Shown here: piece by piece, positions 6,260-61,287 of the stretch
Layout: the number at the start of each line of letters is the position of its first letter
Numbering within the stretch: the stretch's first letter is position 1
Source of the DNA: Streptosporangiales bacterium
GTDB lineage: Bacteria; Actinomycetota; Actinomycetes; Streptosporangiales; WHST01
DNA: 64,000 nt
NCBI GenBank assembly: GCA_009379825.1
Contig: WHTA01000004.1
Span: forward strand, 92,683 to 156,682
Reading direction: 5' to 3'
The notes under the pieces: generated by a model
Database searches by the model: none
Told to the model about the DNA's origin: nothing
The model's input: the letters and a program-made list of their open reading frames with translations, nothing else
Program-made: the position numbers and the translations under genes

Positions 6260-6369
6260 CAGTGCTTCCCGCGGACCGCCGCCGCTGTGCTCCTCGCTCA
6301 GGCGCGGTGAGCGCGTGCGTCCAGGTGTCCGTTCTCGCTGCGATGCGCGCTTTGGCGGCCGGCTCATGA
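6256..6369 (+). other. 37-codon upstream ORF created by a duplicated copy of the acyl-CoA synthetase gene start
   Basis: ATG 6256 overlaps the upstream stop (ATGA). Its first ~29 nt (MTVLPADRRR) repeat the start of the gene at 6366 with one mismatch. Its TGA (6367-6369) overlaps ATG 6366. Confidence 0.4.
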
Positions 6370-8462: not shown

Positions 8463-8466
8463 TGAC

Positions 8467-34352: not shown

Positions 34353-35426
34353 ATGCCCCCGATCGTCGTCGACTGCGATCCCGGCCACGACGACGCGATC
34401 GCGCTCCTCCTCGCGGCGGCCAGCGATGCAGTGGAGCTGTTGGCCGTCACCACGGTCGCGGGCAACCAGACGCTCGAGAAGTGCACGCTCAACGCCCGCC
34501 GCATCCTGACCCTCGGTGGCATCGACGTGCCGCTTGCGGCGGGCGCCGACCGTCCGTTGGTGCGGCCACCGCGGGTCGCGTCCGACATCCACGGCGAGTC
34601 CGGGCTGGACGGCCCGGCACTCCCGACGCCGGCGGTGGACGTCGTCAGCGAGCCGGCTGTCGAGCTGCTCAGGCGCACCCTGCTCGACCATGGCGAACCG
34701 GTGACGCTCGTGCCTGTCGGGCCGCTGACGAACATCGCGACGTTGCTCGACCGCCATCCCGAGGTGCGTGAGCAGGTCGCCGCGATCGTCCTGATGGGTG
34801 GCTCGACCGAGCGCGGCAACTCCTCGCCGTACGCGGAGTTCAACATCCGCGTGGACCCCGAGGCGGCCGAGCTCGTCTTCGGCAGCGGCCTGCCCGTCAC
34901 CATGGTCGGGCTGAACGCGTCGCACCAGGCGCTGGTCACGCCGGACGTCGTGGCGCGGCTGCGCGGTCTCGAGACGCCGGCCGGGGACGTCTGCGCGGAC
35001 CTGATGACGTTCTTCGCGGACGCCTACCACCGGGTGTTCGGCCTGCCGGGGGCGCCGCTGCACGACCCGATCGCCGTGGCCAGGGTGATCGCTCCCTCCC
35101 TCGTCGAGTGCGTACGCGCGCCGGTGCGCGTGGAGACCGCGGGTACCTACACCGACGGCGCCACCGTCGTCGACCTCCACCACGTCACCGGGGAGCCGGA
35201 CAACGCCGACGTCGCCGTCCGGGTCGACGTCCCCGGCTTCTTCGACCTGGTGGTCGACGCCGTCGCCACGTACCGGCGAGTCAGCGGGTCACGCCACGGC
35301 GTTGACACAGCGCGTCGACGAGGTCCTCGGCGGTGCGCGTCGGCACGGACACGCCGAGCCGGTTGGCCAGCCGCAGTGCGGTGGGTGGGCGGACATGCGA
35401 GAGCGCCAGGTCCTCCTCCTGCCTGA
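34353..35426 (+). CDS. nucleoside hydrolase (IU-NH family)
   Basis: ORF track 34353..35426, with the N-terminal aspartate cluster DCDPGHDDA. The homologous part seems to end near ..DAVATY (about 35275). The last ~45 codons overlap the convergent gene. Confidence 0.8.
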   Translation: MPPIVVDCDPGHDDAIALLLAAASDAVELLAVTTVAGNQTLEKCTLNARRILTLGGIDVPLAAGADRPLVRPPRVASDIHGESGLDGPALPTPAVDVVSEPAVELLRRTLLDHGEPVTLVPVGPLTNIATLLDRHPEVREQVAAIVLMGGSTERGNSSPYAEFNIRVDPEAAELVFGSGLPVTMVGLNASHQALVTPDVVARLRGLETPAGDVCADLMTFFADAYHRVFGLPGAPLHDPIAVARVIAPSLVECVRAPVRVETAGTYTDGATVVDLHHVTGEPDNADVAVRVDVPGFFDLVVDAVATYRRVSGSRHGVDTARRRGPRRCASARTRRAGWPAAVRWVGGHARAPGPPPA

Positions 35427-36099
35427 GGACGTCGAGGGCCGGCCCGTCGAGCAGCACCCGTCCCGCGTGCATCACGACGATCCGGTCGGCGACCTTCGCG
35501 GCGAACTCCACGTCGTGCGTGCCGACGACCACCAGACGGTCGTCGGCGACGAGGTCGTGACACAGCCGTTCGAGCGCGGCCAGGCCGGCGGCGTCCTGGC
35601 CGGCGGTGGGCTCGTCGAGGACGACCAGGGGGGTGTCCATCGCGACGACGGACGCGATGGCGATGAGCTTGCGTACCGAGAGCCCGAAGTCCAGCGGGTT
35701 CCTGTCGTCCACGTCCGCGAGACCGAACCGTTCGAGCGCCGTGGTGGCCAGCTCGCCGGCACGCCGGTCGGGGATGCCGAGGTTCTTTGCGCCGTACTGC
35801 ACCTCCGCGCGGAGAGTGGAGTAGAACAGCTGGTCGTCCGGGTTCTGGAACACCAGGCCGACGGTGGCGGCGAGCTTCGCCACGCTCTGCCTGGCGGTGT
35901 CGACGCCGTCGACGTCCACCCGACCGGCGGTCGGCCGCAACAGGCCGTTCAGGTGTTTCATCAGCGTCGACTTGCCCGAGCCGTTCTGGCCGACCACGCA
36001 GACACAGCCGCGGGTCAGGTCGACGGTGACCTGGTCGAGTGCGCTCACGCTGCCCGGGTAGTCGTACGCGACCTCACGCAAGCCGATGGTCGGTGCCAC
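35281..36099 (-). CDS. ECF transporter ATPase (EcfA/CbiO-type)
   Basis: GTG 36099 in ORF 35281..36228. Walker A GQNGSGKST and Walker B VLDEPTAGQD. Confidence 0.8.
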   Translation of the reverse strand: MAPTIGLREVAYDYPGSVSALDQVTVDLTRGCVCVVGQNGSGKSTLMKHLNGLLRPTAGRVDVDGVDTARQSVAKLAATVGLVFQNPDDQLFYSTLRAEVQYGAKNLGIPDRRAGELATTALERFGLADVDDRNPLDFGLSVRKLIAIASVVAMDTPLVVLDEPTAGQDAAGLAALERLCHDLVADDRLVVVGTHDVEFAAKVADRIVVMHAGRVLLDGPALDVLRQEEDLALSHVRPPTALRLANRLGVSVPTRTAEDLVDALCQRRGVTR

Positions 36100-36100
36100 G

Positions 36101-36949
36101 TCACGCTCCCGGTAGCAGTTGTGCGACGAGCTCGGCCTCGGACAACGGCAGCGGCGAGGCATCCGGCAGCGCCCCAGGTCGCCGTGCGAGGTCGGCGATC
36201 TCGGCGACCGGCGGTATGCGCACCGCACCCGGGTCGTCGAGCAACCGCTCGACGACGGCGCGCGGATGGTCGTCGAGCTGGATCCGGCCGTCGGCGAGGA
36301 CGAGCAGCCGGTCCACGTGGTGGATGACCGGGCCGAGGTCCTGCGACACCAGCACCACCGTGTACCCCTTGTCGGTCAGCGTGAACACGTGCTCGAGCAC
36401 CTCTTCGCACCCGATCGGGTCCAGCTGCGAAGTGGGTTCGTCGAGGACGATCACCTCAGGGCGCATGGCGAGCAACGACGCGAGCGCGACCCGTTGCGCC
36501 TGGCCACCGGAGAGCTGCAGCGGCTCGCGCTCGGCGAGGTCGGTGATGTCGAGGTCGGCCAGCGCCTGGTCGACCCGGGCGGCGATGGCCTCCGGCTGCA
36601 CGCCGAGGTTCTCCAGCCCGAACGCGATCTCGTCGAGCACGGTGGTCGTGGCGCCGGTCAGCTGGTCGAACGGGTTGTCGAAGAGCAACCCGACCTTGTC
36701 CACTAGATGCTCGTGCTGAGCGCCGATGTCGGTGCCGTCGACGCTGACCGTGCCGGTGAACTCACCCTCGAAGAAGCGCGGGATGTAGCCGCCGATCAGT
36801 CGGCAGAACGTGCTCTTCCCCGCGCCCGCTCCTCCGGTCACCGCGACGAAGGAGCCCTCCTCGATCTCGCAGCTCACCTGTGCGAGCACCTGGGTGTCCG
36901 GGCGCGAGCCGTACGCGAAGGTGACGTCGTCGACCTTGATCACAGCCAT
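36101..36949 (-). CDS. ECF transporter ATPase (second EcfA-type subunit)
   Basis: ATG 36949 in ORF 36101..36988. Motifs GGAGAGKST, LSGGQAQRV and VLDEPTSQLD. Confidence 0.8.
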   Translation of the reverse strand: MAVIKVDDVTFAYGSRPDTQVLAQVSCEIEEGSFVAVTGGAGAGKSTFCRLIGGYIPRFFEGEFTGTVSVDGTDIGAQHEHLVDKVGLLFDNPFDQLTGATTTVLDEIAFGLENLGVQPEAIAARVDQALADLDITDLAEREPLQLSGGQAQRVALASLLAMRPEVIVLDEPTSQLDPIGCEEVLEHVFTLTDKGYTVVLVSQDLGPVIHHVDRLLVLADGRIQLDDHPRAVVERLLDDPGAVRIPPVAEIADLARRPGALPDASPLPLSEAELVAQLLPGA

Positions 36950-37725
36950 GTCGCCACCCGCCACGCGAGAGCTGCGACGGCCAGGCACACGACGCCGACG
37001 CGGGTGACCTTGTCGGTGCGCGTGTCGTTTAGCACGAGCAGCGACGTCCGTTCGCCCGTGTGGTTGAGGCCCCTGGCCTCGAGCGCGATAGCACGGGTCT
37101 CCGCGGTGACGAGCGCGCCGCTGAACAACGGGATGACGATGGACCGCAGGGACCGGAACCTGGTGACCAGGTTCGCGCGCACGTCGAGTCCGCGCGCCTG
37201 CTGTGCCTGCACGATGCGGCTCACCCGCGCCTGCGCGTCAGGCACGAACTGCATCGCCGCGAGCACGACGTACGCGAACTTCGGCGACAGACCCCGCTGG
37301 GTGAGGCCGACGGCCAGCTCCTTCGGCCTGGTCGATACGACGAGCAGGATCGCGCAGAGCATGATCACCGCGAGCCGCGAAGCGTACGTGGTCGTTGCGG
37401 CGATCCCTTCCATGCTGACCTCGAAGGGCCCCCAGCTCCCGAGGACGCCTTCGCGGTCCGGCTGAAGCAGCCCCTGGATCACGCACAGCGCGATGGCGAG
37501 CGGCAGGAAGAGCACTGCGGCCGCTCGCAGGAGCGGCCGCAGCGTGGCGGACGTGACGGTCAGCAGCAGGAGCACGCCGGTGATGCCGGCCGCGATCCAG
37601 TAGCCGGGCCCGAGGAACGCGGCGAGCGAGAGACCGACGGCCATCGTCAGTTTCGTCACCGGATGCAGTGGGTGCAGCAGTGATCGTCCCGGCAGGTAGC
37701 CGAAGGACGTGGTGCGTCTCGACAC
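36940..37725 (-). CDS. ECF transporter transmembrane T component (EcfT/CbiQ-like)
   Basis: ORF track 36940..37725. Polytopic membrane protein with two Ala-Arg-Gly coupling motifs (..QQARGL.., ..LEARGL..). Confidence 0.75.
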   Translation of the reverse strand: MSRRTTSFGYLPGRSLLHPLHPVTKLTMAVGLSLAAFLGPGYWIAAGITGVLLLLTVTSATLRPLLRAAAVLFLPLAIALCVIQGLLQPDREGVLGSWGPFEVSMEGIAATTTYASRLAVIMLCAILLVVSTRPKELAVGLTQRGLSPKFAYVVLAAMQFVPDAQARVSRIVQAQQARGLDVRANLVTRFRSLRSIVIPLFSGALVTAETRAIALEARGLNHTGERTSLLVLNDTRTDKVTRVGVVCLAVAALAWRVATWL

Positions 37726-37737
37726 GGCAGCACCTCG

Positions 37738-38394
37738 TCAACGGGTGAGGGCTCTGGTCGCGCGTGTGGTCCGGTACCTGGCCGGGAGCACCTTGATGAT
37801 GAGCACGGCGATGAAGACGCTGAGGATCTTGTCGATTGGTTCCACGATGAACTTCGACTTCACCACACTGGACCAGATCTGGTCGCCGGTTGCAAGGAAG
37901 AACGCAGTTATCGCGGACTCACCCGTGCCGCCCGCGCCGCCCGTGGTGGCGACGATGATGGGGGCGGCGATCACGGCTGCGGTCACCGTCAGGATCAATC
38001 CGACGACGAGGCGGCCGATGTTGGTTCGCATGAGGCCCTTGACGGCAAGGATTCCAGCGACGATCCCGATGATGGCCTGCAACGGTGCGTAGCAGATCCA
38101 GATCGGGTTGACGGCGGTCATCACCACGTTCGTGGTGATCCCGGTGACCGCTGCGACCCAGGGGCCGCACATGATCGCCACGAGGATGGTTCCGACCACG
38201 TCGAGGAAGATGGGCAGGTGCAGGGCCTGCACTACCGCTCCCAGGGCGACGTTGATACCGACCCCGACGGGGATGATCACCCATGCCCTCGTGTTGAAGT
38301 CGCTCTTCACGCCCTGCAGGAAGCCGACGGGTTCCGTGTCCGAAGACCGTGATGTGCTCATATCGGCCGAGACCTTTCTTCGGGGGGCGGGCAT
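37738..38394 (-). CDS. ECF transporter substrate-specific S component, substrate unknown
   Basis: ATG 38394 lies six nt after AAGGAG. Small protein with about 6 helices, directly upstream of the EcfT/EcfA/EcfA' genes. Confidence 0.65.
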   Translation of the reverse strand: MPAPRRKVSADMSTSRSSDTEPVGFLQGVKSDFNTRAWVIIPVGVGINVALGAVVQALHLPIFLDVVGTILVAIMCGPWVAAVTGITTNVVMTAVNPIWICYAPLQAIIGIVAGILAVKGLMRTNIGRLVVGLILTVTAAVIAAPIIVATTGGAGGTGESAITAFFLATGDQIWSSVVKSKFIVEPIDKILSVFIAVLIIKVLPARYRTTRATRALTR

Positions 38395-38427
38395 CGGGTG
38401 CTCCTTATGGTCGATGCCGCGTCGAAT

Positions 38428-38445
38428 ACGTCAAGCGCTTGACGT
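38428..38445. promoter_or_regulatory. LacI-type operator copy 1 (ACGTCAAGCGCTTGACGT, 18-bp perfect palindrome; core GTCAAGCGCTTGAC)
   Basis: The core sequence is identical at 42012-42025 and 44170-44183. It lies 32 nt upstream of the S-component start and overlaps the aminotransferase stop codon. Confidence 0.65.
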
Positions 38446-39599
38446 GAATCGGCGCAACTGTTCGGGCATCGCGTTGAGGCCGGCGCGGAGGCGCGCACAG
38501 CCCTTCTGGAGACGTTCGCCCTGCCCGCAGTACGACACGCGCAAGTGCCCTTCCCCGCCCGGACCGAAGCAGCTGCCTGGCATGACCAGCACACCTGCGT
38601 ACTCGGCGAGCCACCTGACGACGTCGGTCGACGAGCCGCCGGTGCGGGGGAACGCGTAGAAGGAACCCTGTGGTTCCACGACCTGGACACCGTCGATGTC
38701 CGCGAGCGTGTCGTGGACGATGTCCCTGCGAGCGCGGTACTCCGTCATCATTGCGTCTATCTCCGAACGCAGGCCGGTGAGTGCCGCGAGGGTGGCGTGC
38801 TGGGTAGGAGCGTTGAGCGAGCCGAGCTGGTGTTCCTGCACCAGGCAGACTGCTTCTGCAACCTCTTCCGGTGCGACGACGTAACCGGCTCGCCAGCCGG
38901 TCATCGCGTACGACTTGGAGAGCGTGAAGATGCCGACGACGTGCCGCAGCGGCCGCTGCAGCGAGCAGGGGCTGACGTGCTGGTTAGGCGGGAAGGCCAG
39001 GTGTTCGTACGCCTCGTCGGACACCAGCCAGCAGCCGTACTCCTCCGTGAGCCGGACGAGCATCCGCATGGTGTCGGCCGGGTACACGACACCGGTCGGG
39101 TTGTTCGGCGAGTTCACGACGAGTGCGCGGGTGCGCGGTGTGATGGCCGCCCGCAGCTCGTCCTCGTCCGGCAGGAAGCCTGCAGGGGTACGGGGACAGG
39201 AACGCCACCGGCCAGCAGGACGTGCGCCCGGTAGTTCGGGAACGAAGGATCGAGCAGGATCACCTCGTCCCCGGGTGCGGTGATGGCGCGGAGTGTGGCG
39301 GCAAGGCCGTTCATCGCGCCCGCGGTGAGCACCACCTGTCTGTCCGGGTCGACGTCGGACAAGCCGTTCTCGGTGCGGAGCTTCTGCGCGACCGCCGCGC
39401 GTACGGCAGCCAGGCCACGGACGTCCGTGTAGTGCGTCTGTCCTTCGGCTGCCGCCCGGTGTGCCGCGTGGATCACGTGCTGCGGTGTGGCAGCCGCGGG
39501 GTCGCCGCTGGCGAGGTCGACGACGTCCGCAGTTGCGTACTGCTCGAGCAGTGACCGGATCCCCGAGCGTGGAATGCGATCCGTGAGCGGCATTGCCAT
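38431..39599 (-). pseudogene. class I/II PLP-dependent aminotransferase, frameshifted
   Basis: The N-terminal part (ATG 39599, ..MPLTDRIPRSGIRSLLE..) is in the 39114..39737 frame. The C-terminal part is in the 38431..39609 frame (..VVNSPNNPTG.., ..TLSKSYAMTGWR..). The junction ..PVPLQ|GFLPDEDEL.. lacks one G near 39180. Confidence 0.8.
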
Positions 39600-41968
39600 C
39601 AGCGGCCACCCTCGGTGCGGGACAACCAGGCGTCGAGCACGACGGCGCCCTGCCCGGCAGGCAGCACGCGCACCGGGTTCAGGTCGAGCACACCAGGCCC
39701 ACCGGTGAGGGAGCGTGCGACGTCGGACAGGCGGCACAGCACGTCGACGAGGGCGTCGACGTCGGCAGCGGCTCCACGGACACCTCGCAGCAGTGCGTCG
39801 AGAACGCGCGTCTGCCCGATCATCCGTCGCGCAGCCGTAGGCGTGACGGGCGCTCGCCGGACGACCACGTCATCGAGCACCTCGGCGAGTACGCCGCCGG
39901 AGCCGCAGACGAGGAACGGTCCGAGGTCGGCGTCCACGAGGATGCCGACGAGCACGTCGACTCCTTGCGGCACCATCCGCTCGACGAGCATGGCGTCCTG
40001 CGGCTCGGTGAGATGCGTCCGCACCGCCGCGGTGATCTCGCGGTATGCGGTCCGCACCTCCTGGTCGGAGGCGAGGCCGACCCGGACCGCGCCGTACTCG
40101 GTCTTGTGCGCCAGCCGGGGTGACTGCGCCTTCATGACCACGGGGAAACCGAGCCGAGCCGCCGCAGCGGCAGCGTCGTCCTCGCTCGTGACCAGCGCGC
40201 CTTCCGGCACGGCGAAGCCGAGCTCGGCGAGTGCTCGCTTGAGGTCCGCCTCGGTGGCCGCCGGCCACGCGGGCGCCGGTAGGTCGTCGGTGACGTGGAT
40301 GTCGGGGTCGCGATCGGCGACCGCTGCCATCGCATGGAACGCGGGCCGCATCCCGGTGAGCACGGGTACGCCGTGGCGATGCGCTGTATCGGCGACGACG
40401 CAGTCGACCGGGCCGGAGCCCGACGTCACGATGGCATGGTGTCGTCGGCTGCCCGCGGCGTGCGAGCTGAACGCGTGCGCCAGCCGCCGGTACGTCTCCT
40501 GGTCCGCCTCGTCGGCTGCACTGGGCGAGTTGAGCAGCAGCACCAGGTCGTGCTCCGAGGGTGAGGCGTCCAACGTGCCGAGCACACGCGGCAGCACGGC
40601 GTCGTCGGTGGCGGCGACACCGGTGAGGTCGAGCGGGTTCGCCGGCGTGGTGGCGAACGGCAGCTGCTCCCTGAGCCCCGCCGATGTGGCGCCGTCCAGC
40701 TCCGCGAGCCGCACGCCGGCCTCCTCCGCGACGTCGGCCGCCAGCGCGCAGGTGCCACCGGAGATGCTCATCAGGACGCTGCGTCGCGACGGCTCGCGGC
40801 GGCCACGGGCGAGCAGCTCGCAGGCGTTCACCAGCTCGTCGACGTCCTCGACCAGTACGGCCGCACGACTGCGGCACGCGGCCGCGAGCACCCGCGACTG
40901 GGTGGCCAGTGCGCCGGTGTGCGCCGCGACGGCGAGCCTGCCGGCTTCGGTGCGGCCCGCCCGCAACACCACGACCGGTCGGCCGGCGCGCTGCGCGGCG
41001 AGCAGCGCGCGGTCGAGCGCGGCCGGGTCACGCACCGTCTCGAGGTAGCAGGCGATGACCTCGACCGCGGGTTCCGCGGCCAGCGCCTCGACGTAGTGGT
41101 CGAGGCGCAGCGACGCCTCGTTCCCCGTGGTGATCAGGTGGCTGAAGCCGAGCCCTCGTCCGCCCGCCGTGTCGATCACCGCGTTGAGCACACCACCGCT
41201 CTGCGACACGACCGCGAACGTGCCAGGCGTCGGGTCGGACGGCAGCGACCCGAAGTAGGCGGCGAACCCGTCGACCAGGTTCGCGACGCCGTAACAGTTG
41301 GGGCCGACCAGCCGGATGTCGTGCTGCTCGGAAACCTCGCGCAGCCGATCCTGTGTCGCTCGCCCTGCCGCGCCGCTCTCGGCGAACCCACCGGCGAGGA
41401 ACGAGACCGCGCGGGCACCGGCATCGGCGGCCTGTCGCAGGACGTCCTCGGCGTCGAACCTGTCCCCGGTGAAGTACAGGTAGTTCACCCGTTTCGGGTT
41501 GTTGGCGAACCACGGGAGCAGCAACAGCGGGGAGAGCGCATAGTGCCTGATCTCCGGCTCGGCGAACGTCGCCCGGCTCGACGCGATGACGATGTCCGCG
41601 AGCAGCGCCAGGTTCGCGCCCGCGGCTACGGCGTACCCGTCAACCGCGCTGACGACCGGCACACGCAGCTGCCAGATACGCATGAGCGCCTGGAAGTTCG
41701 CCTCGGTGGCCGCTGTGACGTCGTCGGTGCGGGTCGGCATGTCGAGCCCGTCGAGGTCGAACCCCACGGAGAACGCGCGGACGCCCGCACCGGTGAGCAC
41801 CACCACGCGTATCGACTTGTCGAGGTGTACCTCGTCGAGCACCTCGGTCAGCCGGGTGACCATCGACGGGGTCAGTGCGTTGAGCTTGTCCGGTCGGTCG
41901 AGTGTCACGACGGCGACACCTTCGACACGTTCGAAGCGAACCTCGTCTCGGCCTTCGACCATCATCAT
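39599..41968 (-). CDS. chimeric enoyl-CoA hydratase (N-terminal ~175 aa) fused to an N-terminally truncated NDP-forming acyl-CoA synthetase
   Basis: Last 789 codons of ORF 39599..43852, starting at the ATG triplet 41960-41968 after GAGGGG. The crotonase fold (..VVLTGAGVRAFSVGFD.., ..AVDGYAVAAGANLAL..) runs to ..YFTGDRFDAE. The sequence then switches to ..DVLRQAADAGARAVSFLAGGFAESG.., followed by ligase-CoA and ATP-grasp domains. Confidence 0.7.
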   Translation of the reverse strand: MMMVEGRDEVRFERVEGVAVVTLDRPDKLNALTPSMVTRLTEVLDEVHLDKSIRVVVLTGAGVRAFSVGFDLDGLDMPTRTDDVTAATEANFQALMRIWQLRVPVVSAVDGYAVAAGANLALLADIVIASSRATFAEPEIRHYALSPLLLLPWFANNPKRVNYLYFTGDRFDAEDVLRQAADAGARAVSFLAGGFAESGAAGRATQDRLREVSEQHDIRLVGPNCYGVANLVDGFAAYFGSLPSDPTPGTFAVVSQSGGVLNAVIDTAGGRGLGFSHLITTGNEASLRLDHYVEALAAEPAVEVIACYLETVRDPAALDRALLAAQRAGRPVVVLRAGRTEAGRLAVAAHTGALATQSRVLAAACRSRAAVLVEDVDELVNACELLARGRREPSRRSVLMSISGGTCALAADVAEEAGVRLAELDGATSAGLREQLPFATTPANPLDLTGVAATDDAVLPRVLGTLDASPSEHDLVLLLNSPSAADEADQETYRRLAHAFSSHAAGSRRHHAIVTSGSGPVDCVVADTAHRHGVPVLTGMRPAFHAMAAVADRDPDIHVTDDLPAPAWPAATEADLKRALAELGFAVPEGALVTSEDDAAAAAARLGFPVVMKAQSPRLAHKTEYGAVRVGLASDQEVRTAYREITAAVRTHLTEPQDAMLVERMVPQGVDVLVGILVDADLGPFLVCGSGGVLAEVLDDVVVRRAPVTPTAARRMIGQTRVLDALLRGVRGAAADVDALVDVLCRLSDVARSLTGGPGVLDLNPVRVLPAGQGAVVLDAWLSRTEGGR

Positions 41969-42011
41969 CCCCTCGACCGGTGCTCGATTTCTCTCACGAA
42001 ACGCCTGAGAC

Positions 42012-42025
42012 GTCAAGCGCTTGAC
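42012..42025. promoter_or_regulatory. LacI-type operator copy 2 (GTCAAGCGCTTGAC)
   Basis: Lies between the divergent starts at 41968 (-) and 42053 (+, the LacI regulator). Confidence 0.65.
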
Positions 42026-42052
42026 TAACTCGCCGGCCGTAGGCTGGGAGAC

Positions 42053-43102
42053 GTGAACAAGGCGAAGACAGCCCAGTACCGCGCGACCGCTACGGACGTC
42101 GCCGCCATGGCCGGTGTGTCGACCTCGACGGTGTCTCTGGTGATCAACGGGAAGGCTGCGGGTCGCGTCTCGCAGGAGACCCAGGACCGGGTGCATGCCG
42201 CCGTGCAGCATCTCGGCTACCGCATCGACGGGGTGGCCAGGAGCCTCGCCACGGGGCGGCGCAACTCCGTCGCGCTGACCGTTCCCGACCTCGTCAACCC
42301 GTACTTCTCGCAGGTGACCATGGGTGTCGCGGAGGGGCTCGGCGACTACCAGCTGATGTTGCTGGTGACGAGGGTGGACGACGACAGGTTCACGGTCAAC
42401 GTGGAGAACATGCTCGCCGAACGGGTCGACGGCGTGCTCGCCGAGGCTCCCGGTGCCCGGTTGGTGGAGGAGCTGGACGTGCCCTGCCCGGTGGTGGTGC
42501 TCGACCGGCCCACGCAAGGCACGACGCTGCCACACGTCGACTTCGACCTCGCGAAGGGCGTGCGGGAGCTCGCCGCGCACCTGGTCGAGCTCGGCCACCG
42601 CCACCTCGGGTACGTGGACGCCGCTCGCCAGGGGCCGACGTTCCAGACCCGCAGGCAGCTCCTGTTGCGGCGCATGCGCGGTCTCACCGAGGACCCCGTC
42701 ACGCTGTCGACCACCAGGTCCGCCACCACGGTCGAGGAGGCGGCGGCGGAGTTCAGGCAACGCTGGCCGCAGTGGCGCGCCGACGGGGTCAGCTGTGTCG
42801 TCTGCGCCACGGACATCCAGGCCTACGGGGTGGTGGATGCGGCGCAGGAGCTCGGCATTGCGGTGCCCGGTGAGCTGTCCGTGGCGGCCTTCGACGACCT
42901 GCCGTTCTCCAAGATCCTCGCCCCTGGCGGGCTCACCACGATCACCCTGTCCGGCTACGAGCTCGGCCTGCGGTCGGCGGCGTTGTTGCGCGAGCTGATG
43001 GACGGACGCCGGCCGGAGGAGACACACGTCCGGCTGTCGTGCGAGCTGCAGGTGCGCGGCACGACCGGGCCGAAGAAGGGCAGGCGCGCGAAGCGTGCCT
43101 AG
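42053..43102 (+). CDS. LacI family transcriptional regulator
   Basis: ORF track 42053..43102. N-terminal HTH ..ATDVAAMAGVSTSTVSLVING.. followed by a sugar-binding-fold core. Confidence 0.85.
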   Translation: MNKAKTAQYRATATDVAAMAGVSTSTVSLVINGKAAGRVSQETQDRVHAAVQHLGYRIDGVARSLATGRRNSVALTVPDLVNPYFSQVTMGVAEGLGDYQLMLLVTRVDDDRFTVNVENMLAERVDGVLAEAPGARLVEELDVPCPVVVLDRPTQGTTLPHVDFDLAKGVRELAAHLVELGHRHLGYVDAARQGPTFQTRRQLLLRRMRGLTEDPVTLSTTRSATTVEEAAAEFRQRWPQWRADGVSCVVCATDIQAYGVVDAAQELGIAVPGELSVAAFDDLPFSKILAPGGLTTITLSGYELGLRSAALLRELMDGRRPEETHVRLSCELQVRGTTGPKKGRRAKRA

Positions 43103-44123
43103 GACGGGATCGCGCCGGCGGCGATCTCCCCGAGCAGCCGCCGGTAGTCGATGGAGACACGGTCGACGCCGCGGATGTGTAGCTCGGCGCTGAGGTCGAT
43201 CGGGAGCTCCTCCGGCCGCTGTGACTCCACCACCACTCGGTCCTGTTCGAGCACGACCTCCTGGAAGGAGACGTACTCGGCGTCGTTGGCCGGGTCGAGG
43301 TCGTAGTTGCGCGCGCACATGCTGAACGAGCGCGTCTCCTTCCTGCCGACCGGGCACGAGGCCACGAACAGCACGAAGTGCCTGCCGTCGGGCAGGGCTT
43401 GGTTGAGGTACACGGAGAACGGTGCCGTCAGCACGTACGACGTCGGGTCGCGCTGGATGGTCACGGCGTCCGCAGGGTCGCCCTTCACCGGGTTGGCCGG
43501 CTCCTCTAGTCCCAGCGCGAACCGCAGTGTCCAGCCGTCGCGCACCACCTCGTGGTCGGGGATCTCCGGCCGGTCCGGTGACCCGAGGATGCCCTCGTGC
43601 ACGAACGGGAAGTGCGAGAAGTCGACGAAGTTCTCCACCCGCCGGGCCGCGCTGCAGTGCCAGTCGTAGGTGGGGATCTTTACCAAGCGGTACGTCTCGT
43701 CGTCGGCTTCCGGGAACTCCGGCAGCGGTAGTGCGGGCTCGTCGTCGAGGCAGACCCAGATCATGCCGGCGCCTCCCGAGCCTGGTGGCGCACGAGCCTG
43801 GCGCGGCGCGGGATGTTGTCGCCGTGCCGCGCGGGGATCCTGGTGCAGACACCGCCGGCGTCGTAGGTCCAGCCGTGGTACGGGCACACCAGTTCGTCGT
43901 CGACGACCTTGCCGAGCGAGAGTGCCGTGCCTCGATGCACGCACAGGTCGCGGAACGCGGCCACGCCGGCGGCCATCCGCACGACGACTACGGCCTCGTC
44001 GAGCAGCGTCACGCGCGCGGGTGCGGTGCCGAGCTCGTCGGCGAACAACACCGGATGCCAGAACCTGCGCAACTGCTGGTAGAGCGCTTCCTCGCCCACA
44101 GCGTCGAGTTCCCTTACCGGCAT
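43099..44123 (-). pseudogene. Rieske non-haem iron oxygenase alpha subunit (VanA-like), frameshifted between domains
   Basis: Piece 43761..44174 starts at ATG 44123 after GAGGAGG and carries the Rieske motif CVHRG..CPYHGW. Piece 43099..43944 carries the iron motif ENFVDFSHFPFVHEG. Frames switch between 43761 and about 43800. Confidence 0.8.
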
Positions 44124-44169
44124 CGTCCGCACCTCCTCGCCAGTCACCCTGGACGAGCGACCGGCACTA

Positions 44170-44183
44170 GTCAAGCGCTTGAC
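44170..44183. promoter_or_regulatory. LacI-type operator copy 3 (GTCAAGCGCTTGAC)
   Basis: Lies between the divergent starts at 44123 (-) and 44217 (+). Confidence 0.65.
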
Positions 44184-44216
44184 CCATTGCCTGGCACCGG
44201 ACTAGCGTCGCTCCTC

Positions 44217-45413
44217 GTGGAGCCATCGGACCTCGCCTTCGACAGCAAGCTCGTCTACTACGCGCCTGAGCCGGCGTCGCAGTCGATCAGCTACCCGATC
44301 TACATGTCGGCCAACTACCAGTACGCGGACGACATCTACGACAAGATCGTTGCGGGTGAGCGTCGGGATGTGAACATCTACAGCCGCTGCGGCAACCCGA
44401 CCGAGTACAAGCTCGAGGAGCAGGTGGCGAAGGCAGCGGGTGCCGACTCCTGCCTCGCGACGGCGTCGGGCATGGCCGCGGTGTCGCACGCGCTCTTCGG
44501 CCTGCTGAAGTCGGGTGACCACCTGGTCGCGGACTGGACGACGTACAGCAGCACGCACGAGTTCTTCGACCATCGCATCACGGACTACGACATCGACGTG
44601 ACGTTCGTCGACACCGCCGACCCGCTCGCGGTGACCAAGGCGATCACGCCGCGGACGAAGCTCGTCTACTTCGAGACGGTCGCCAACCCGACGATGAAGG
44701 TCACCCCGATCCCGCCGCTCGCCGAGATCGCGCACGAGCGCGGCATCCCGCTGGTCTGCGACAACACGTTCGCCAGCCCCGCGGTCTGCCAGCCGCATGC
44801 GTTCGGCGTGGACGTCGTGGTGGAGAGCGCCACGAAGTTCATCGGTGGACACAACGACGCCGTCGGCGGGGTGATCACGATGCGCTCGGACCTGCTCCCG
44901 CAGGACTGGCTGGAAGACGTTCGGTGGAACACGCTGAACAAGCTCGGCGGTGCGCTGTCGCCGTTCAACGCCTGGCTGCTGCTGCGCGGCCTCCAGACCC
45001 TGGGGCTGCGCGTGGACCGGCAGTCGGCGAACGCCATGACGCTGGCCCGGCATCTGGAGGAACACCCCGCGGTGGAGGCGGTGTGGTACCCGGGGTTGCC
45101 GTCGCACCCGCAGCACGGCGTCGCGTCCGAGCAGCTGCGCAACTACGGCGCGATGCTCACCTTCGCCGTCGCCGACGAGCGGGCGGCAGTCACCGTGCTC
45201 AAGGCACTGCGCCTGGCCAGCTTCGCCGCCAGCCTCGGCGGACTGCGTACGACCGCGCAGGTGCCTGCCACCATGGCGTTCCTGGACATCTCGCCGGAAC
45301 AACGTCAGCAGATGGGGGTACGCGACGGCGCCGTCAGGGTGTCCGTAGGCATCGAGGACGCATCGGACGTTCTCGCGGACTTCGACCGCGCCCTTGCCCA
45401 GGCGTACGAGTAG
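44217..45413 (+). CDS. Cys/Met-metabolism PLP-dependent enzyme (methionine gamma-lyase / cystathionine gamma-synthase-like)
   Basis: GTG 44217 in the 43422..45413 frame. Motifs ..SRCGNPT.. and ..ESATKFIGGHND.. (PLP lysine). Confidence 0.8.
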   Translation: MEPSDLAFDSKLVYYAPEPASQSISYPIYMSANYQYADDIYDKIVAGERRDVNIYSRCGNPTEYKLEEQVAKAAGADSCLATASGMAAVSHALFGLLKSGDHLVADWTTYSSTHEFFDHRITDYDIDVTFVDTADPLAVTKAITPRTKLVYFETVANPTMKVTPIPPLAEIAHERGIPLVCDNTFASPAVCQPHAFGVDVVVESATKFIGGHNDAVGGVITMRSDLLPQDWLEDVRWNTLNKLGGALSPFNAWLLLRGLQTLGLRVDRQSANAMTLARHLEEHPAVEAVWYPGLPSHPQHGVASEQLRNYGAMLTFAVADERAAVTVLKALRLASFAASLGGLRTTAQVPATMAFLDISPEQRQQMGVRDGAVRVSVGIEDASDVLADFDRALAQAYE

Positions 45414-45501: not shown

Positions 45502-45643
45502 ATCGAGGCGTTCCCGTCGCTAGTACCGCTGGGCTGGCCGGCGATCGGAGTCGGCGACCAGCGTCGATGCGCTTTTGGCAGCTGTCCCCCGCAACCTCGG
45601 CACGGCCGTGTCGTCGGTTCATGGCGCCAGGCAAAGGAGCCTC

Positions 45644-47044
45644 ATGGCCACCACCGAAGCGACTCCGGCGGACCCGTACCTCCTCACCGCCGAAGGCATA
45701 AAAGAACCCCCCGTCGGCTGGAAGAACAGCCTCAGGTATCTCGGTCCCGGCATGATCCTCAGCGCCTCCATCGTGGGGTCGGGCGAGCTGATCGCCACCA
45801 CCACGCTGGGCGCACAGGCCGGGTTCGTGCTGCTCTGGCTGGTGATCGTCAGCACGTTGGTGAAAGTCGCGGTGCAGATCGAGCTGGCCAGGTGGACGAT
45901 CGTCACCGGCGAACCGGCGCTCACCGGGTACGGCCGGGTGCCACCGAAGTTCGGCCGGATCGGCTGGGTCAACGTCCTCTGGATCGTGCTGGCACTCAGC
46001 AAGTTGTTGCAGCTCGGCGGCATCATCGGCGGCGTCGCCGTCGCGCTGAGCGTGTTAATGCCGCTGGGTAGCGCGCCACTCGGGCAGACGTCGCTGACGA
46101 TATGGACGATCATCGTCATGGTCCTCAGCATCGCCATGCTGTACTCCAGCAAGTACAAGCTGATCGAGCGCGGCGCCGTCGCCCTGGTGGTGCTGTTCTC
46201 GCTGCTGACCATCTTCATCGCGGTCGGGTTGCCGGTGACCGAGTTCGCCTACAGCGCCGGCGACATCGGCGGCGGCCTGAAGTTCCTCATCCCCGCCGGC
46301 ACGATCGGCGCCGCCGTCGCCATGTTCGGCATCACCGGTGTGGGTGCGGACGAGATCACGTTCTACACCTACTGGTGCGTGGAGAAGGGCTACGCGCGGT
46401 GGACCGGCCCCAACGACGGGTCCGAGGAGTGGCGGCGTCGCGCCAACGGCTGGATCAAGGTCATGAAGAAGGACGCATTGGTGTCCTGGCTGATCTACAC
46501 GTTCGGCACGCTGGCCTTCTACCTGATGGGCGCGGCCGTGCTCAAGCCGCAGGGTCTGGTGCCCGAGGGCAACGAGATGATCACCACCCTGTCGAGGATC
46601 TACACCGGCACGCTCGGCGACTGGGCGAACGTCCTCTTCCTGATCGGCGCGATCGCGGTGCTCGGCTCGACGATGTGGGCGGCCATTCCCAGCTGGTCCC
46701 GGATGTACTCCAACCTGCTGTCCACCCTGGGCGTGTTCGACTGGCAGAACGTGGTGGCCCGCAGGCGGTCGGTGCGCATCTTCACCGTCATCTTGCCGGT
46801 GCTGTGGGCTGCGGCGTTCCTCTATATCCAGGAGCCGGTGCTGATGGTCCAGATCGGCGGCGTGATGACCGGCATCTTCCTCGTGGCGGTCGTGATCGCG
46901 GTCTGGTATCTGCGCAACAAGGAGACCGACGCGAGACTGCACGGCACCAGGTGGTTCACGATCGCACTGACAATTAGTAGCGTCGCAATTGCCGCACTCG
47001 GCGTCTACAGCGTGTTGAGCGTGTTCGGCCTCGAGCTCGGCTGA
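45644..47044 (+). CDS. NRAMP family divalent-metal transporter
   Basis: ATG 45644 after AAAGGAG in ORF 45575..47044. Motif ..LGPGMILSASIVGSGEL.. and about 11 TM segments. Confidence 0.8.
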   Translation: MATTEATPADPYLLTAEGIKEPPVGWKNSLRYLGPGMILSASIVGSGELIATTTLGAQAGFVLLWLVIVSTLVKVAVQIELARWTIVTGEPALTGYGRVPPKFGRIGWVNVLWIVLALSKLLQLGGIIGGVAVALSVLMPLGSAPLGQTSLTIWTIIVMVLSIAMLYSSKYKLIERGAVALVVLFSLLTIFIAVGLPVTEFAYSAGDIGGGLKFLIPAGTIGAAVAMFGITGVGADEITFYTYWCVEKGYARWTGPNDGSEEWRRRANGWIKVMKKDALVSWLIYTFGTLAFYLMGAAVLKPQGLVPEGNEMITTLSRIYTGTLGDWANVLFLIGAIAVLGSTMWAAIPSWSRMYSNLLSTLGVFDWQNVVARRRSVRIFTVILPVLWAAAFLYIQEPVLMVQIGGVMTGIFLVAVVIAVWYLRNKETDARLHGTRWFTIALTISSVAIAALGVYSVLSVFGLELG

Positions 47045-47056
47045 CGGGGAGGTCAG

Positions 47057-48373
47057 ATGGATAAGGCAGCAGCTGGGCTCGGCCCCTTCGAGGCGGTCGG
47101 CGATCTCTCGTACGACGTGGCGTTCCCGGCGATGCTGCCGGTGCAGCAGAAGGTCGACGCCCCACAGGTGGCCGATGTCGCCGCCGCGACGCGGGCGGCG
47201 CTCGAGCCGTTACGCGCACGGGTCACCGCCGGTATGTCGGTCGCGATCACCGCGGGCAGCCGCGGCATCGCGGACAAGCCGGCCGTCGTACGCGCGGCCG
47301 GCGAGTGGCTGCGGTCGGTCGGCGCTGAACCGTTCGTGGTGCCTGCGATGGGGTCGCACGGCGGTGCGACCCCTGAGGGGCAGGTGGAGCTGCTCGGCGA
47401 GCTCGGCATGACCGAGCAGAGCGTGGGCATGCCGATCCGCGCGACGATGGACACGGCGCGGGTCGGCCAGGTGCCCGGTGGGCCCGAGGTCCATCTGGAC
47501 GCCTACGCTGCCGAGGCGGACGGCATCCTCGCCGTCAACCGGGTGAAGGCGCACACCGACTTCTCCGGCGAGCTGGAGAGCGGCGTGGGCAAGATCGTCG
47601 CGATCGGACTCGGCAAGCAACGCGGAGCCGAGGGCGTCCACCGGTTCGGGCCGGCGAACCTGGGCACCTGGATCCCGCGGGTCGCGCGGCACCTCGTCGA
47701 CACCGGGAAGGTGCTCGGCGGCCTGGCGATACTCGAGAACGCCCACGACCGGGCGGCGAGGATCGAGCTCCTGGAGCCGGCCGATATCGCGGGACCTGGC
47801 GAGGCGCAGCTGCTGCTCGAGGCGAAGCAGCTGATGGGGCGGTTGCCGTTCGACGACATCGACGTCGCCGTGGTGGACGCGATGGGCAAGAACGTGTCGG
47901 GTTCGGGCATGGACACGAACGTGATCGGCCGGATGATGATCCGCGGCAGCCCCGAGTTCGAGGGGCCGAACATCCGCAACATCGCCGTCCTCGACCTCAC
48001 CGACGAGTCCCACGGCAACTCCGTCGGAGTCGGCCTCGCGGACTTCGTCCCGTTCCGGCTGATGGCGAAGGTCGACCTGCGTGCGACGTACGTCAACGCC
48101 ATGACGTCCGGGCTCGGCGGCCCGCAGCGGGCGCAGCTACCGATCACGCTGCCCACCGACAGGGACGCCGTGGCCGCCGCGATCCTCACCTGCGGCCGCC
48201 CGGACACGGCCCAGGCCCGGGTGGTGCGGATGCGTAGCACACTGGACCTGGAAGACCTGCTGGTCAGCGAGGCGCTCCGCGACGAGGTGCTGGCGAACGA
48301 CCGGCTGACCATCACCGGCGAGCCGAGCCCACTCGCGTTCGGCCCGGACGGCCGCATCACCGGATGGTCGTGA
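47057..48373 (+). CDS. LarA-like / DUF2088-type domain protein (tentative)
   Basis: ORF track 47057..48373. The layout ..VAITAGSRGI.., ..PAMGSHGG.., ..VNRVKAHTDFSG.. resembles lactate-racemase N-terminal-domain proteins. The family call is tentative. Confidence 0.5.
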   Translation: MDKAAAGLGPFEAVGDLSYDVAFPAMLPVQQKVDAPQVADVAAATRAALEPLRARVTAGMSVAITAGSRGIADKPAVVRAAGEWLRSVGAEPFVVPAMGSHGGATPEGQVELLGELGMTEQSVGMPIRATMDTARVGQVPGGPEVHLDAYAAEADGILAVNRVKAHTDFSGELESGVGKIVAIGLGKQRGAEGVHRFGPANLGTWIPRVARHLVDTGKVLGGLAILENAHDRAARIELLEPADIAGPGEAQLLLEAKQLMGRLPFDDIDVAVVDAMGKNVSGSGMDTNVIGRMMIRGSPEFEGPNIRNIAVLDLTDESHGNSVGVGLADFVPFRLMAKVDLRATYVNAMTSGLGGPQRAQLPITLPTDRDAVAAAILTCGRPDTAQARVVRMRSTLDLEDLLVSEALRDEVLANDRLTITGEPSPLAFGPDGRITGWS

Positions 48374-48392
48374 GCGCAACAGTAAGGAGAGC

Positions 48393-51113: not shown

Positions 51114-51125
51114 AAGGAGTTCGAC

Positions 51126-52109
51126 TTGCGTGCTGGTTATCTTGCTGCCCAAGGCCGGATCGAGATCGATGACTTCCCGATCCCTGAGCCCGCTGCCGGT
51201 GAAGTGCTCGTGCGGATGCGCCGGGCCTCCATCTGTGGCTCCGACCTGCATATGGCGTACGACGGTTTCCACTGCGCGGACGCGATCGGCAGATCCGGAT
51301 ATCCCGGTCACGAGGGCATCGGCGAGGTCGTCGAGAGCAGGTCGCCGAACTTCGCTACCGGACAACGGGTGCTCACCGTGCCGCCCGGTGACTTCGGCGC
51401 CTGCTTTGCGGAGTACCAGCTCGTCGACGACCTGCATCTGGTGGCCCTGCCGGACGGTGACGAGCGCAGGTTGTTGATGGCCCAGCAGCTCGGCACCACC
51501 ATCTTCGCGATGCGCAGGTTCTGGCCGGCGGACAAGGTGGGTACCGGCAAGGTGGCCGCGATCCTCGGCATGGGCTCGGCCGGCCTGTTCTTCCTCCAGC
51601 AGGTCCGCCGGCTCGGGTTCGAGCAGGTGCTGGTCTCCGACCTGATCCCTGAGCGCCTGCGAGTGGCGAAGCGGTTGGGTGCCGACGTCGTGGTGCATGC
51701 GCCAGGCGAGAGCGTCGCGGAAGCCATCGGCGACGCGTCCGCCGGTCGAGGAGCCGACCTCGTCATCGAGGCAGCGGGCTTCGACAAGCTGCGGGCGGAG
51801 GCCGTCGAGGCGGTCGCCGACCACGGCACCGTCGGCTGTTTCGGCTTCCCCGAGCGCGACGGTGACGCGCCGTACCCGTCGTTCACGGCGTTCCGCAAGG
51901 CGGCGACTATCGCCTGGATTTCCGGTGCCCAGGCGGAACCCGGCCTGGTCTCGTTCCGCGAGGCGCTGGCCGGTATCAACGACGGCACCTACGAGGTCGA
52001 CTACTGCGGCGAGCCCAGTTACCCGCTGGAACGGATAGCCGAGGCGATGGCATTGGCCAGAAACGATGGCGACCGCACGATAAAGGTCGGCATCGACATC
52101 GGACCCTGA
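51126..52109 (+). CDS. medium-chain (zinc-type) dehydrogenase/reductase
   Basis: TTG 51126 after AAGGAG. Motifs ..CGSDLH.., ..GHEGIGEV.. and a GMGSAG Rossmann motif. Confidence 0.8.
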   Translation: MRAGYLAAQGRIEIDDFPIPEPAAGEVLVRMRRASICGSDLHMAYDGFHCADAIGRSGYPGHEGIGEVVESRSPNFATGQRVLTVPPGDFGACFAEYQLVDDLHLVALPDGDERRLLMAQQLGTTIFAMRRFWPADKVGTGKVAAILGMGSAGLFFLQQVRRLGFEQVLVSDLIPERLRVAKRLGADVVVHAPGESVAEAIGDASAGRGADLVIEAAGFDKLRAEAVEAVADHGTVGCFGFPERDGDAPYPSFTAFRKAATIAWISGAQAEPGLVSFREALAGINDGTYEVDYCGEPSYPLERIAEAMALARNDGDRTIKVGIDIGP

Positions 52110-61213: not shown

Positions 61214-61227
61214 CCGGCTCCTTCGAG

Positions 61228-61260
61228 TAACCCAAACGTTTGGCCCAAACGTTTGGGTTA
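61228..61260. promoter_or_regulatory. 33-bp perfect palindrome containing two tandem CCAAACGTTTGG boxes (LacI/PurR-like operators)
   Basis: TAACCCAAACGTTTGG-C-CCAAACGTTTGGGTTA has all 16 arm positions complementary. It lies between the amidase start (61213, -) and the LacI-family start (61288, +). Confidence 0.65.
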
Positions 61261-61287
61261 TCCTGGCGAGTATCTTCTGAGTTGTCA

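Follow-up and report, generated by a model that had tools for sequence, protein, structure and literature searches.

LacI-family regulators of nucleoside utilization are already known and include UriR of Corynebacterium glutamicum, AdeR, HpxR, and CytR (PMC4052901). In a survey of the family, the operators were even palindromes of 14 to 22 bp with a central CG, which was the consensus in 1173 of the 1303 regulators surveyed; the sites lay 30 to 140 bp upstream of start codons in more than 75% of cases, and autoregulation was recorded for more than three quarters of the local regulators (PMC4052901). Here, we analyzed a 64-kb stretch of DNA from a Streptosporangiales bacterium (contig WHTA01000004.1, ~70% G+C), referred to below as the window, which carries a LacI-family gene and three copies of the palindrome GTCAAGCGCTTGAC. 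A preliminary description of this DNA had taken the palindromes as operators of an autoregulated LacI-type regulon of unassigned substrate, with an imported amino-acid-like or methylated/thioether compound offered as a guess. From comparison with related loci, we are highly confident that the three palindromes are the operators of the LacI-family repressor encoded at 42053-43102.

Three palindromes in promoter regions around a LacI-family gene

The regulator gene and the palindromes are located as follows (positions are those of the window).

42053-43102, plus strand: LacI-family regulator, 349 amino acids (aa) from a GTG start, apparently intact
38430-38443: operator 1, core GTCAAGCGCTTGAC, within the perfect 18-bp palindrome ACGTCAAGCGCTTGACGT (38428-38445), 35 nt 5' of the ATG (38394, minus strand) of the S-component gene of an energy-coupling factor (ECF) importer
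42012-42025: operator 2, within the 84 bp that separate the divergent crotonase (start 41968, minus strand) and LacI (GTG 42053, plus strand) genes, the putative autoregulatory site
44170-44183: operator 3, in the 93-bp divergent gap between the Rieske oxygenase ATG (44123, minus strand) and the GTG (44217, plus strand) of a Cys/Met-metabolism pyridoxal-phosphate (PLP) enzyme gene

A pattern search found exact GTCAAGCGCTTGAC at these three positions and nowhere else in the window, as the preliminary description had stated, and its claim that the copies exceed chance was likewise borne out, no copy being present in 100 dinucleotide-preserving shuffles. Allowing up to three mismatches added two matches (at 1705 and 50989), both with three mismatches and at chance level. 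When a weight matrix derived from operator-like sites of other loci was run over the 64 kb, the three sites scored 30.2, 29.2, and 25.2 bits and the runner-up position scored 7.6 bits. The palindromes have the form of LacI/GalR operators, with an even core of 14 bp (18 bp at operator 1) and a central CG. They also have the expected placement, in promoter regions that include that of the regulator's own gene. Operator 2 is 43 nt from the crotonase start and 27 nt from the LacI GTG, and operator 3 is 46 nt from the Rieske ATG and 33 nt from the GTG of the PLP enzyme gene, so that the site-to-start gaps for all three operators fall between 27 and 46 nt. Operator 1 includes the stop codon TGA (38431-38433) of the aminotransferase gene. 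The preliminary description had placed operator 1 upstream of the S-component gene, which stands, at a distance of 32 nt, which is corrected here to 35 nt; its location of operator 3 between the divergent Rieske and PLP enzyme genes was confirmed.

The regulator matched PF00356 (LacI helix-turn-helix, 3.4e-15), PF13377 (Peripla_BP_3, 3e-24), and PF00532 (6.2e-12) and thus has the N-terminal helix-turn-helix and the type I periplasmic-binding-protein-like effector domain of LacI/GalR proteins. Its nearest solved structure was CcpA (E value of 1.7e-30). The database entry for this protein is 331 aa long and starts at ATG 42107, 18 codons downstream of GTG 42053. The ATG start would cut away part of the conserved helix-turn-helix, and an alignment of homologs, in which conservation extends upstream of the database start, supports GTG 42053 as the start.

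The palindrome travels with the regulator

Phylogenetic footprinting had been put forward in the preliminary description as a check on the operators. The closest regulator homolog outside the window, 78% identical, was found on two short assembly contigs (L004 and L005), where the gene order is as in the window: ECF genes, synthetase, and crotonase, then LacI, then Rieske. Exact GTCAAGCGCTTGAC was present at L004 2685-2698, between the synthetase and S-component genes, which is the equivalent of operator 1 and likewise overlaps the stop codon of the preceding gene. It was also present at L004 5714-5727 and L005 1702-1715, between the crotonase and LacI genes, which is the equivalent of operator 2. 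The bases immediately beside the palindrome differ between the window and this orthologous locus.

Related sites accompanied more distant regulators. In two Actinomadura genomes (L006 and L007), regulators that are 54 to 55% identical adjoin the pseudouridine catabolism genes psuG-psuK and a nucleoside hydrolase gene, and the one-mismatch site GTCAAGCGCTTTAC lies directly upstream of psuG in both. The locus of a 48% homolog (L008) contains an operon of a Rieske gene with a pyrimidine-nucleoside phosphorylase gene, a Bmp-type ATP-binding cassette (ABC) importer, and a nucleoside hydrolase; the related site GTTAAACGGTTGAC is in its divergent promoter region, ahead of the operon of the Rieske gene, which is 70% identical to that of the window. 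A Chloroflexota homolog has psuG, psuK, a Bmp-type importer, and cytidine deaminase as neighbors, together with five sites, all of them intergenic. A 49% homolog is divergent from an operon of an ECF importer, nucleoside hydrolase, amidohydrolase, and kinase, with GTCAAGCGCTTAAC in the 112-bp gap.

A metagenome scan with the subfamily alignment yielded 80 further loci, and 42 of these, with a regulator at least about 36% identical (417 kb), were used for counts of sites with no more than two mismatches and a central CG. These loci held 44 sites versus 0.71 in shuffles. Of the 44 sites, 33 lay no more than 200 bp from the regulator gene, in a zone making up 4% of the bases, and 24 of the 42 loci had a site in this zone. 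Five control loci without a regulator homolog had no site at up to two mismatches. The subfamily consensus is the 18-bp palindrome aCGTCAAGCGCTTGACGt. Among homologs of less than 60% overall identity, the DNA-binding domain was 60 to 73% identical versus 40 to 52% for the effector domain. A contig search with the single regulator sequence returned only 30 to 32% identical paralogs from Inhella/Burkholderiaceae, none with the site. The operator is thus inherited together with its regulator across genomes, as in LacI/GalR systems, and the comparison indicates a regulator subfamily that occurs in Actinomycetota and Chloroflexota and keeps its predicted operator beside varied nucleoside-catabolic genes. 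Both the assignment of GTCAAGCGCTTGAC as LacI-type operators, by position, even central-CG form, and conservation beside homologous regulators, and the proposed autoregulation, by the site 27 nt before the LacI GTG, its exact counterparts in L004 and L005, and the clustering of sites near regulator genes, are supported by these data.

As a separate observation, tandem operators spaced 23 to 24 bp start to start were found between the hydrolase and regulator genes in eight of the related loci (L013, L016, L017, L019, L036, L039, L042, and L043), in contrast to the window, which has single sites only.

A second LacI paralog serves as an internal control

A second LacI paralog is encoded in the window at 61231-62343 and has its own pair of exact palindromes, CCAAACGTTTGG, at 61232-61256, 13 bp apart (0.03 copies in shuffles). 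The pair occupies the gap that separates this gene from the divergently oriented amidase gene at 59858-61333; a sodium:solute symporter gene comes after the amidase gene. The second paralog and CCAAACGTTTGG probably form a separate small regulon. Control of GTCAAGCGCTTGAC by this paralog was considered and rejected, since the gene has sites of its own, and its different palindrome offers an internal control on specificity for the predicted pairing of GTCAAGCGCTTGAC with the regulator at 42053-43102.

We also considered whether something other than binding by the adjacent LacI protein accounts for the palindrome, which might be a dispersed repeat, the site of another protein, or a shared promoter element that contains a -35 sequence. 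The -35-like pentamer TTGAC is present in each half-site, i.e., on both strands, which would suit a promoter element, and LacI binding is here predicted from sequence with a site census of the window. However, the site travels with the regulator gene rather than with any particular target across two phyla, loci without the regulator also lack the site, the palindrome has the form that is the rule for the LacI family (PMC4052901), and the second paralog has a different palindrome. We therefore regard this explanation as very improbable. A hairpin terminator was also rejected, the palindrome having no loop and no T-run.

Proposed mode of repression

Two hexamers were read by eye as candidate -10 boxes.

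42040-42045, plus strand: TAGGCT, 7 nt before the LacI GTG
44203-44208, plus strand: TAGCGT, 8 nt before the GTG of the PLP enzyme gene, a putative element read from the sequence

TAGGCT, by its position, suggests the -10 box of a leaderless mRNA, in which case operator 2 would lie over the -35 region. CGTAGGCT, 7 nt ahead of that GTG, is shared with L004, whereas the stretch separating CGTAGGCT from the operator diverges. At operator 3, TTGACC is 19 nt upstream of TAGCGT, at the -35 position.

In the proposed mechanism, a repressor dimer would bind each even central-CG palindrome (14-bp core, up to 18 bp). Operators 2 and 3 lie in the middle of divergent gaps, where they would cover the probable -35 positions, so that a single bound repressor would silence a pair of transcription units at each: the regulator's own gene and the crotonase/acyl-CoA synthetase/aminotransferase unit at operator 2, and the genes for the Rieske oxygenase and the PLP enzyme at operator 3. 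Operator 1, 35 nt ahead of the ECF genes, might be the operator of an internal promoter or a roadblock. Release of the repressor would follow when an effector occupies its periplasmic-binding-protein-like domain. Repression through promoter occlusion is, on this evidence, probable.

Several points weigh against the operator reading or its details. The pairing of operators and regulator is putative and rests on comparison, and repression rather than activation is assumed from the behavior of the family. The census of sites in the source organism is confined to the 64-kb window, and contigs L004 and L005 both stop within the Rieske gene, short of the position of operator 3. A scan for consensus promoters and terminators found nothing, as expected for a 70% G+C actinomycete, and the -10 and -35 assignments are readings by eye. 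With these points taken into account, the pairing together with the reading as a local regulon is still considered quite likely.

Genes behind the operators

The genes that lie behind the three operators are listed below.

37738-38394, minus strand: ECF S component, related to the CD3073 family (NCBIfam NF045596, 6.1e-29, below the cut-off)
36940-37725, minus strand: ECF T component (Pfam CbiQ, 2-210/216)
36101-36988 and 35281-36228, minus strand: two ECF ATPases (ABC_tran, 2-137/137 each)
39599-41968, minus strand: crotonase/ADP-forming acyl-CoA synthetase fusion open reading frame (ORF) with truncated Pfam matches
38431-39599, minus strand: class I aminotransferase resembling aspartate aminotransferase (AspAT), its start overlapping the synthetase stop (TGATG)
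43099-44123, minus strand: Rieske/VanA_C oxygenase of the NdmA/NdmB/HpxD clade, frameshifted
44217-45413, plus strand: Cys/Met-metabolism PLP enzyme of the gamma-lyase type (PF01053, 1.5e-125, 12-380/381), intact

Behind operator 1, the S and T components and two ATPases form one minus-strand row (35281-38394), as in a group-I (dedicated) ECF importer, and the same order was seen in L004, whose S component is 87% identical. The best NCBIfam models for the two ATPases were ECF_ATPase_1 and ECF_ATPase_2. Searches of Rfam for riboswitches and other RNA families were negative, both for the window and for the regions preceding S-component homologs.

Behind operator 2, the crotonase/synthetase unit ends with the aminotransferase gene, which lacks a separate operator and for which no homolog was found in the orthologous locus L004. 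The intact L004 synthetase (731 aa) has CoA_binding_2, Succ_CoA_lig, and ATP-grasp_5 domains, and its closest solved structures were 8wzu (2.2e-79), 7cm9 (DddX, 2.1e-77), and 9y43; the closest solved relatives are 4-hydroxybutyrate-CoA ligase, the dimethylsulfoniopropionate (DMSP) lyase DddX, and 3-hydroxypropionate-CoA ligase. A plasmid tblastn search with the synthetase returned only 29 to 36% identical matches to the "acetate--CoA ligase family." In both the window crotonase (41500-41640) and its intact ortholog (L004 4829-5662), the sequence AAGANLALLAD occupies what we take to be, by motif and not from a structural alignment, the site at which classical enoyl-CoA hydratases have their first catalytic glutamate; the second one is there, in EPEI. 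Because the first catalytic glutamate appears to be replaced, the crotonase may not be a simple hydratase.

The Rieske enzyme at operator 3 is 65 to 71% identical to the L008 enzyme. The best solved relatives of this intact ortholog were NdmA (2.5e-53) and NdmB (6.2e-45), and plasmid genes with an HpxD annotation shared about 40% identity with it. No domain of a partner reductase was found in the ORFs from 35281 to 45413 or in 10 flanking ORFs sampled between 29 and 53 kb. For the PLP enzyme on the other side of operator 3, methionine gamma-lyases were the best solved relatives (4e-93), and the PLP-lysine motif SATKF is present. However, it scored 385 bits against the methionine gamma-lyase model TIGR01328, with a cut-off of 549.7. 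Methionine gamma-lyases of Pseudomonas, Citrobacter, and Trichomonas have a YGCT motif with the specificity cysteine. The window enzyme reads TTYSSTHEFF at this position, which was assigned by eye and not by structural alignment, and it thus appears to have YSST in place of YGCT. The "methionine-gamma-lyase-like" label of the preliminary description accordingly holds for the gamma-lyase-type family, and membership in the methionine gamma-lyase class is not supported. Its list of regulated genes was right about operators at the ECF, Rieske, and PLP enzyme units, whereas the aminotransferase lacks an operator of its own and the hydratase/synthetase gene is not a natural fusion, as described below.

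Two neighboring gene groups were also noted. Some 110 to 160 bp past the PLP enzyme gene, a tight row at 45575-52109 encodes an Nramp-family transporter, a nickel-pincer-cofactor isomerase (group 22, above the NCBIfam cut-off), a 934-aa ORF with two full sets of altronate/galactarate-dehydratase domains, which may be a two-gene fusion, and a zinc alcohol dehydrogenase. A second ADP-forming acyl-CoA synthetase paralog, with all three domains complete, is at 6189-8462, directly upstream of an acyl-CoA dehydrogenase gene (8404-9618), and is unrelated to the operators.

Three enzyme genes of the regulon are probably damaged

L004 has one gene for the crotonase (277 aa) and another for the synthetase (731 aa). 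About 560 bp of L004 (4577-5136) is missing from the window, with a junction at 41445-41452 that shows short microhomology. By blastn and BLASTP, the resulting ORF joins crotonase residues 1 to ~176 of 277 in frame with synthetase residues ~87 to 705 of 731, and Pfam coverage is truncated on both sides (ECH_1, 3-166/251; CoA_binding_2, 67-114/116). The acyl-CoA synthetase thus lacks ~86 N-terminal residues and the crotonase lacks its C-terminal helical part, and the fusion product is probably inactive. A natural bifunctional hydratase-synthetase was rejected, as L004 has two separate full-length genes and both are truncated here. Operator 2 therefore does lie between this ORF and the LacI gene, as first described, while the single natural gene assumed there is a deletion fusion.

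The Rieske gene lacks 1 nt between 43773 and 43772 relative to the intact L005 gene, which places the Rieske domain and VanA_C in different frames rather than in one polypeptide; the L005 and L008 genes are intact. In the aminotransferase gene, three-frame translation located a frame change near 39181-39186. Its open frame matches only the C-terminal 60% of the Pfam and NCBIfam models, and after repair of the frame the protein aligns collinearly with Thermus AspAT 1gc3 (E value of 2.9e-74). Domain matches were full length for 10 other genes sampled from across the window, and the deletion and the two frameshifts are therefore very likely real. The preliminary description had not noticed these lesions.

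It could be, against this, that both frameshifts are sequencing errors and possibly that the deletion is an assembly error, so that the regulon would be fully functional in the organism. Each frameshift involves a single base, the deletion keeps the reading frame open, and nothing is broken in the operators, regulator, importer, or PLP enzyme, as would be expected if they were still in use. On the other side, a base-calling error does not produce a loss of ~560 bp that leaves a clean junction with microhomology, the three lesions fall within 4.6 kb while complete domains were found in the other sampled genes, and the Rieske frameshift is outside any long homopolymer run. We consider such errors an improbable explanation. 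With the lesions taken as real, the regulatory circuit appears to survive, its regulator, three perfect operators, ECF importer, and PLP enzyme looking intact, and the pathway is probably no longer complete because three enzyme genes are inactivated. The regulatory sites in the window have thus stayed perfect while three structural genes decay, and annotation pipelines would label the deletion scar at 39599-41968 as a "bifunctional" fusion.

Links to nucleoside chemistry

The neighbors of the regulator subfamily were surveyed by tblastn of marker proteins against all fetched loci and by Pfam analysis of the genes downstream of orphan sites. Genes adjoining regulator homologs encode an inosine-uridine (IU) nucleoside hydrolase, psuG/psuK, pyrimidine-nucleoside phosphorylase, a Bmp-type ABC transporter, cytidine deaminase, an ECF importer with a hydrolase, and an AdoHcyase-like enzyme. 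RihA/UriH-like hydrolases, about 50 to 55% identical to that of the window, were found in 12 metagenome-scan loci, in L006 and L007, and in L008; psuG was found in 5 metagenome-scan loci and in L006, L007, and L009. A gene resembling that of S-adenosylhomocysteine (SAH) hydrolase was present in eight loci (L025 to L029, L033, L035, and L040), where it is convergent, short (~382 aa), and always follows a regulator of a 39 to 41% identical sub-clade. In five of the eight (L026, L027, L029, L033, and L040), an operator lies just upstream of it, about 33 nt before the start in L029. The divergent partner in L026 is a PLP enzyme of the beta-eliminating-lyase type.

The window has a hydrolase gene of the same kind.

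34353-35426, plus strand: RihA/UriH-like pyrimidine nucleoside hydrolase (Pfam IU_nuc_hydro, 6.8e-100; NCBIfam RihA, 2e-106, and UriH, 2.4e-99)

The weight-matrix scan found no operator for this gene. In related loci, the nucleoside hydrolase gene is the usual divergent neighbor of the regulator gene, and because similar hydrolases adjoin regulator homologs elsewhere, the window hydrolase is possibly a former member of the regulon. Its ORF exceeds the Pfam domain by ~40 residues and shares ~146 nt with the 3' end of the ECF ATPase ORF, which is convergent with it.

The characterized relatives of the Rieske oxygenase act on purine bases, NdmA and NdmB being methylxanthine N-demethylases and HpxD a molybdenum-independent xanthine hydroxylase. 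Because both the neighbors of the regulator subfamily and the Rieske clade indicate such chemistry, we tentatively suggest that the effector and imported compound are derived from a nucleoside or nucleobase, an assignment that we place a little short of probable. The compound may carry an N-alkyl or amino-acid-type side chain. The preliminary description could not map the gene combination onto a described pathway. The gene set is unusual, but the substrate is no longer wholly open, as the subfamily and the Rieske enzyme both indicate nucleoside or nucleobase chemistry.

Some findings count against a nucleoside substrate. The argument leans on paralogous regulators with effector domains just 40 to 52% identical, and no nucleoside-specific enzyme is under an operator in the window. 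The S-component homologs are in stand-alone ECF operons with uninformative neighbors. Rieske homologs elsewhere are in mixed contexts, one alone, one beside a haloacid dehalogenase (HAD) hydrolase with a uracil phosphoribosyltransferase (UPRTase) gene nearby, and one 3 kb from a nucleoside hydrolase gene; as support for nucleoside chemistry these contexts are weak.

A different substrate is conceivable, with the palindromes still LacI operators but the regulon serving, in line with the guess in the preliminary description, a non-nucleoside amino-acid-like, methylated, or thioether compound, such as a methionine/homocysteine derivative or a DMSP-like acid, and the regulator having kept only the DNA specificity of nucleoside-sensing ancestors. 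The genes directly behind the operators, for a gamma-lyase-type PLP enzyme, an AspAT-like aminotransferase, a crotonase, and an ADP-forming acyl-CoA synthetase, would fit such a compound, as would the solved relatives of the synthetase (4-hydroxybutyrate-CoA ligase, DddX, and 3-hydroxypropionate-CoA ligase), the diverged effector domains, and the window hydrolase without an operator. However, the Rieske enzyme has a 70% identical counterpart that is co-operonic with a pyrimidine-nucleoside phosphorylase under a related operator, the characterized relatives of the Rieske enzyme use purine bases, other members of the subfamily have nucleoside hydrolases as well as ECF or ABC importers under their control, and one sub-clade controls the SAH-hydrolase-like gene. 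On balance, a non-nucleoside substrate appears unlikely. Because of this SAH-hydrolase-like gene, nucleoside and amino-acid/thioether chemistry may also coincide, for example in a compound of the S-adenosylhomocysteine or aminocarboxypropyl-nucleoside type.

Within the preferred nucleoside or nucleobase reading, a more speculative proposal, which we think has a small chance of being right, is that the operators mark what is left of a pathway, so far undescribed, that degrades a modified nucleoside or nucleobase conjugate. Candidate conjugates are methylated uridine or pseudouridine and acp3U-like or S-adenosylhomocysteine-like compounds, with an N-alkyl or an aminocarboxypropyl/homocysteinyl-type side chain. 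In such a route, the dedicated ECF transporter would take up the compound, the NdmA/HpxD-type Rieske oxygenase would dealkylate or hydroxylate the base, the gamma-lyase-type PLP enzyme would strip the amino-acid side chain, and the ADP-forming CoA ligase and crotonase would handle the short acid released. If this were true, the regulators with GTCAAGCGCTTGAC operators would be a widespread unrecognized sensor family for nucleoside salvage and catabolism, including pseudouridine genes and the SAH-hydrolase-like enzyme.

Comparison with known systems

No description of this regulator, operator, or pathway was found in the searchable literature, a search that left out regulon databases such as RegPrecise. 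The consensus aCGTCAAGCGCTTGACGt is usable for regulon prediction in any genome with these regulators, and the subfamily recurs in soil Actinomycetota and Chloroflexota. It links pseudouridine genes, RihA/UriH-like hydrolases, an SAH-hydrolase-like enzyme, NdmA/HpxD-like Rieske oxygenases, and two kinds of importer and so gives a handle on uncharacterized enzymes. Descriptions of modified-nucleoside catabolism in bacteria are still few, with 2'-O-methyl nucleosides as one example (PMC12709175), and the subfamily therefore offers a way into it.

The individual enzymes each resemble a described class and depart from it. The Rieske oxygenase shares the two-domain non-heme-iron fold of NdmA, NdmB, and HpxD, the similarity (E value of 2.5e-53, ~40% identity) having been measured on the 70%-identical intact ortholog; unlike the NdmA and HpxD systems, the window copy is frameshifted, and no partner reductase was found among the genes scanned from 29 to 53 kb. 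The intact L004 synthetase shares the three-domain architecture of the 4-hydroxybutyrate-CoA and 3-hydroxypropionate-CoA ligases and DddX. Unlike those ligases, this ortholog is paired with a crotonase gene, and the window copy, without its first ~86 residues, is fused to a truncated crotonase. The PLP enzyme has the full-length Cys_Met_Meta_PP domain and SATKF motif of the family of methionine gamma-lyase and cystathionine gamma-lyase/synthase, but differs from methionine gamma-lyase in its score below the NCBIfam cut-off and in YSST for YGCT.

At the level of regulation, the system shares with CcpA and its cre sites the LacI-GalR architecture, with even palindromes of 14 to 18 bp, a central CG, and a distance of 27 to 46 nt from starts, and CcpA is the closest structure. 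Unlike CcpA, the regulator looks local, with three sites around its own gene rather than a global set and no sign of an HPr-type protein co-repressor. In this it is like UriR, AdeR, HpxR, and CytR, as a putative local autoregulated LacI-type repressor with a central-CG palindrome and control of an operon for a nucleoside hydrolase or a transporter, the hydrolase in the other loci of the subfamily being RihA/UriH-like. It is not an ortholog of UriR, since the NCBIfam UriR model NF051853 gave it 105 bits against a cut-off of 550, and its targets in the window are an ECF importer, crotonase/synthetase, Rieske oxygenase, and gamma-lyase-type enzyme in place of a ribokinase-transporter-hydrolase operon. 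The system is thus of an ordinary kind, a local LacI regulon of the nucleoside-utilization type, with an unusual gene set.

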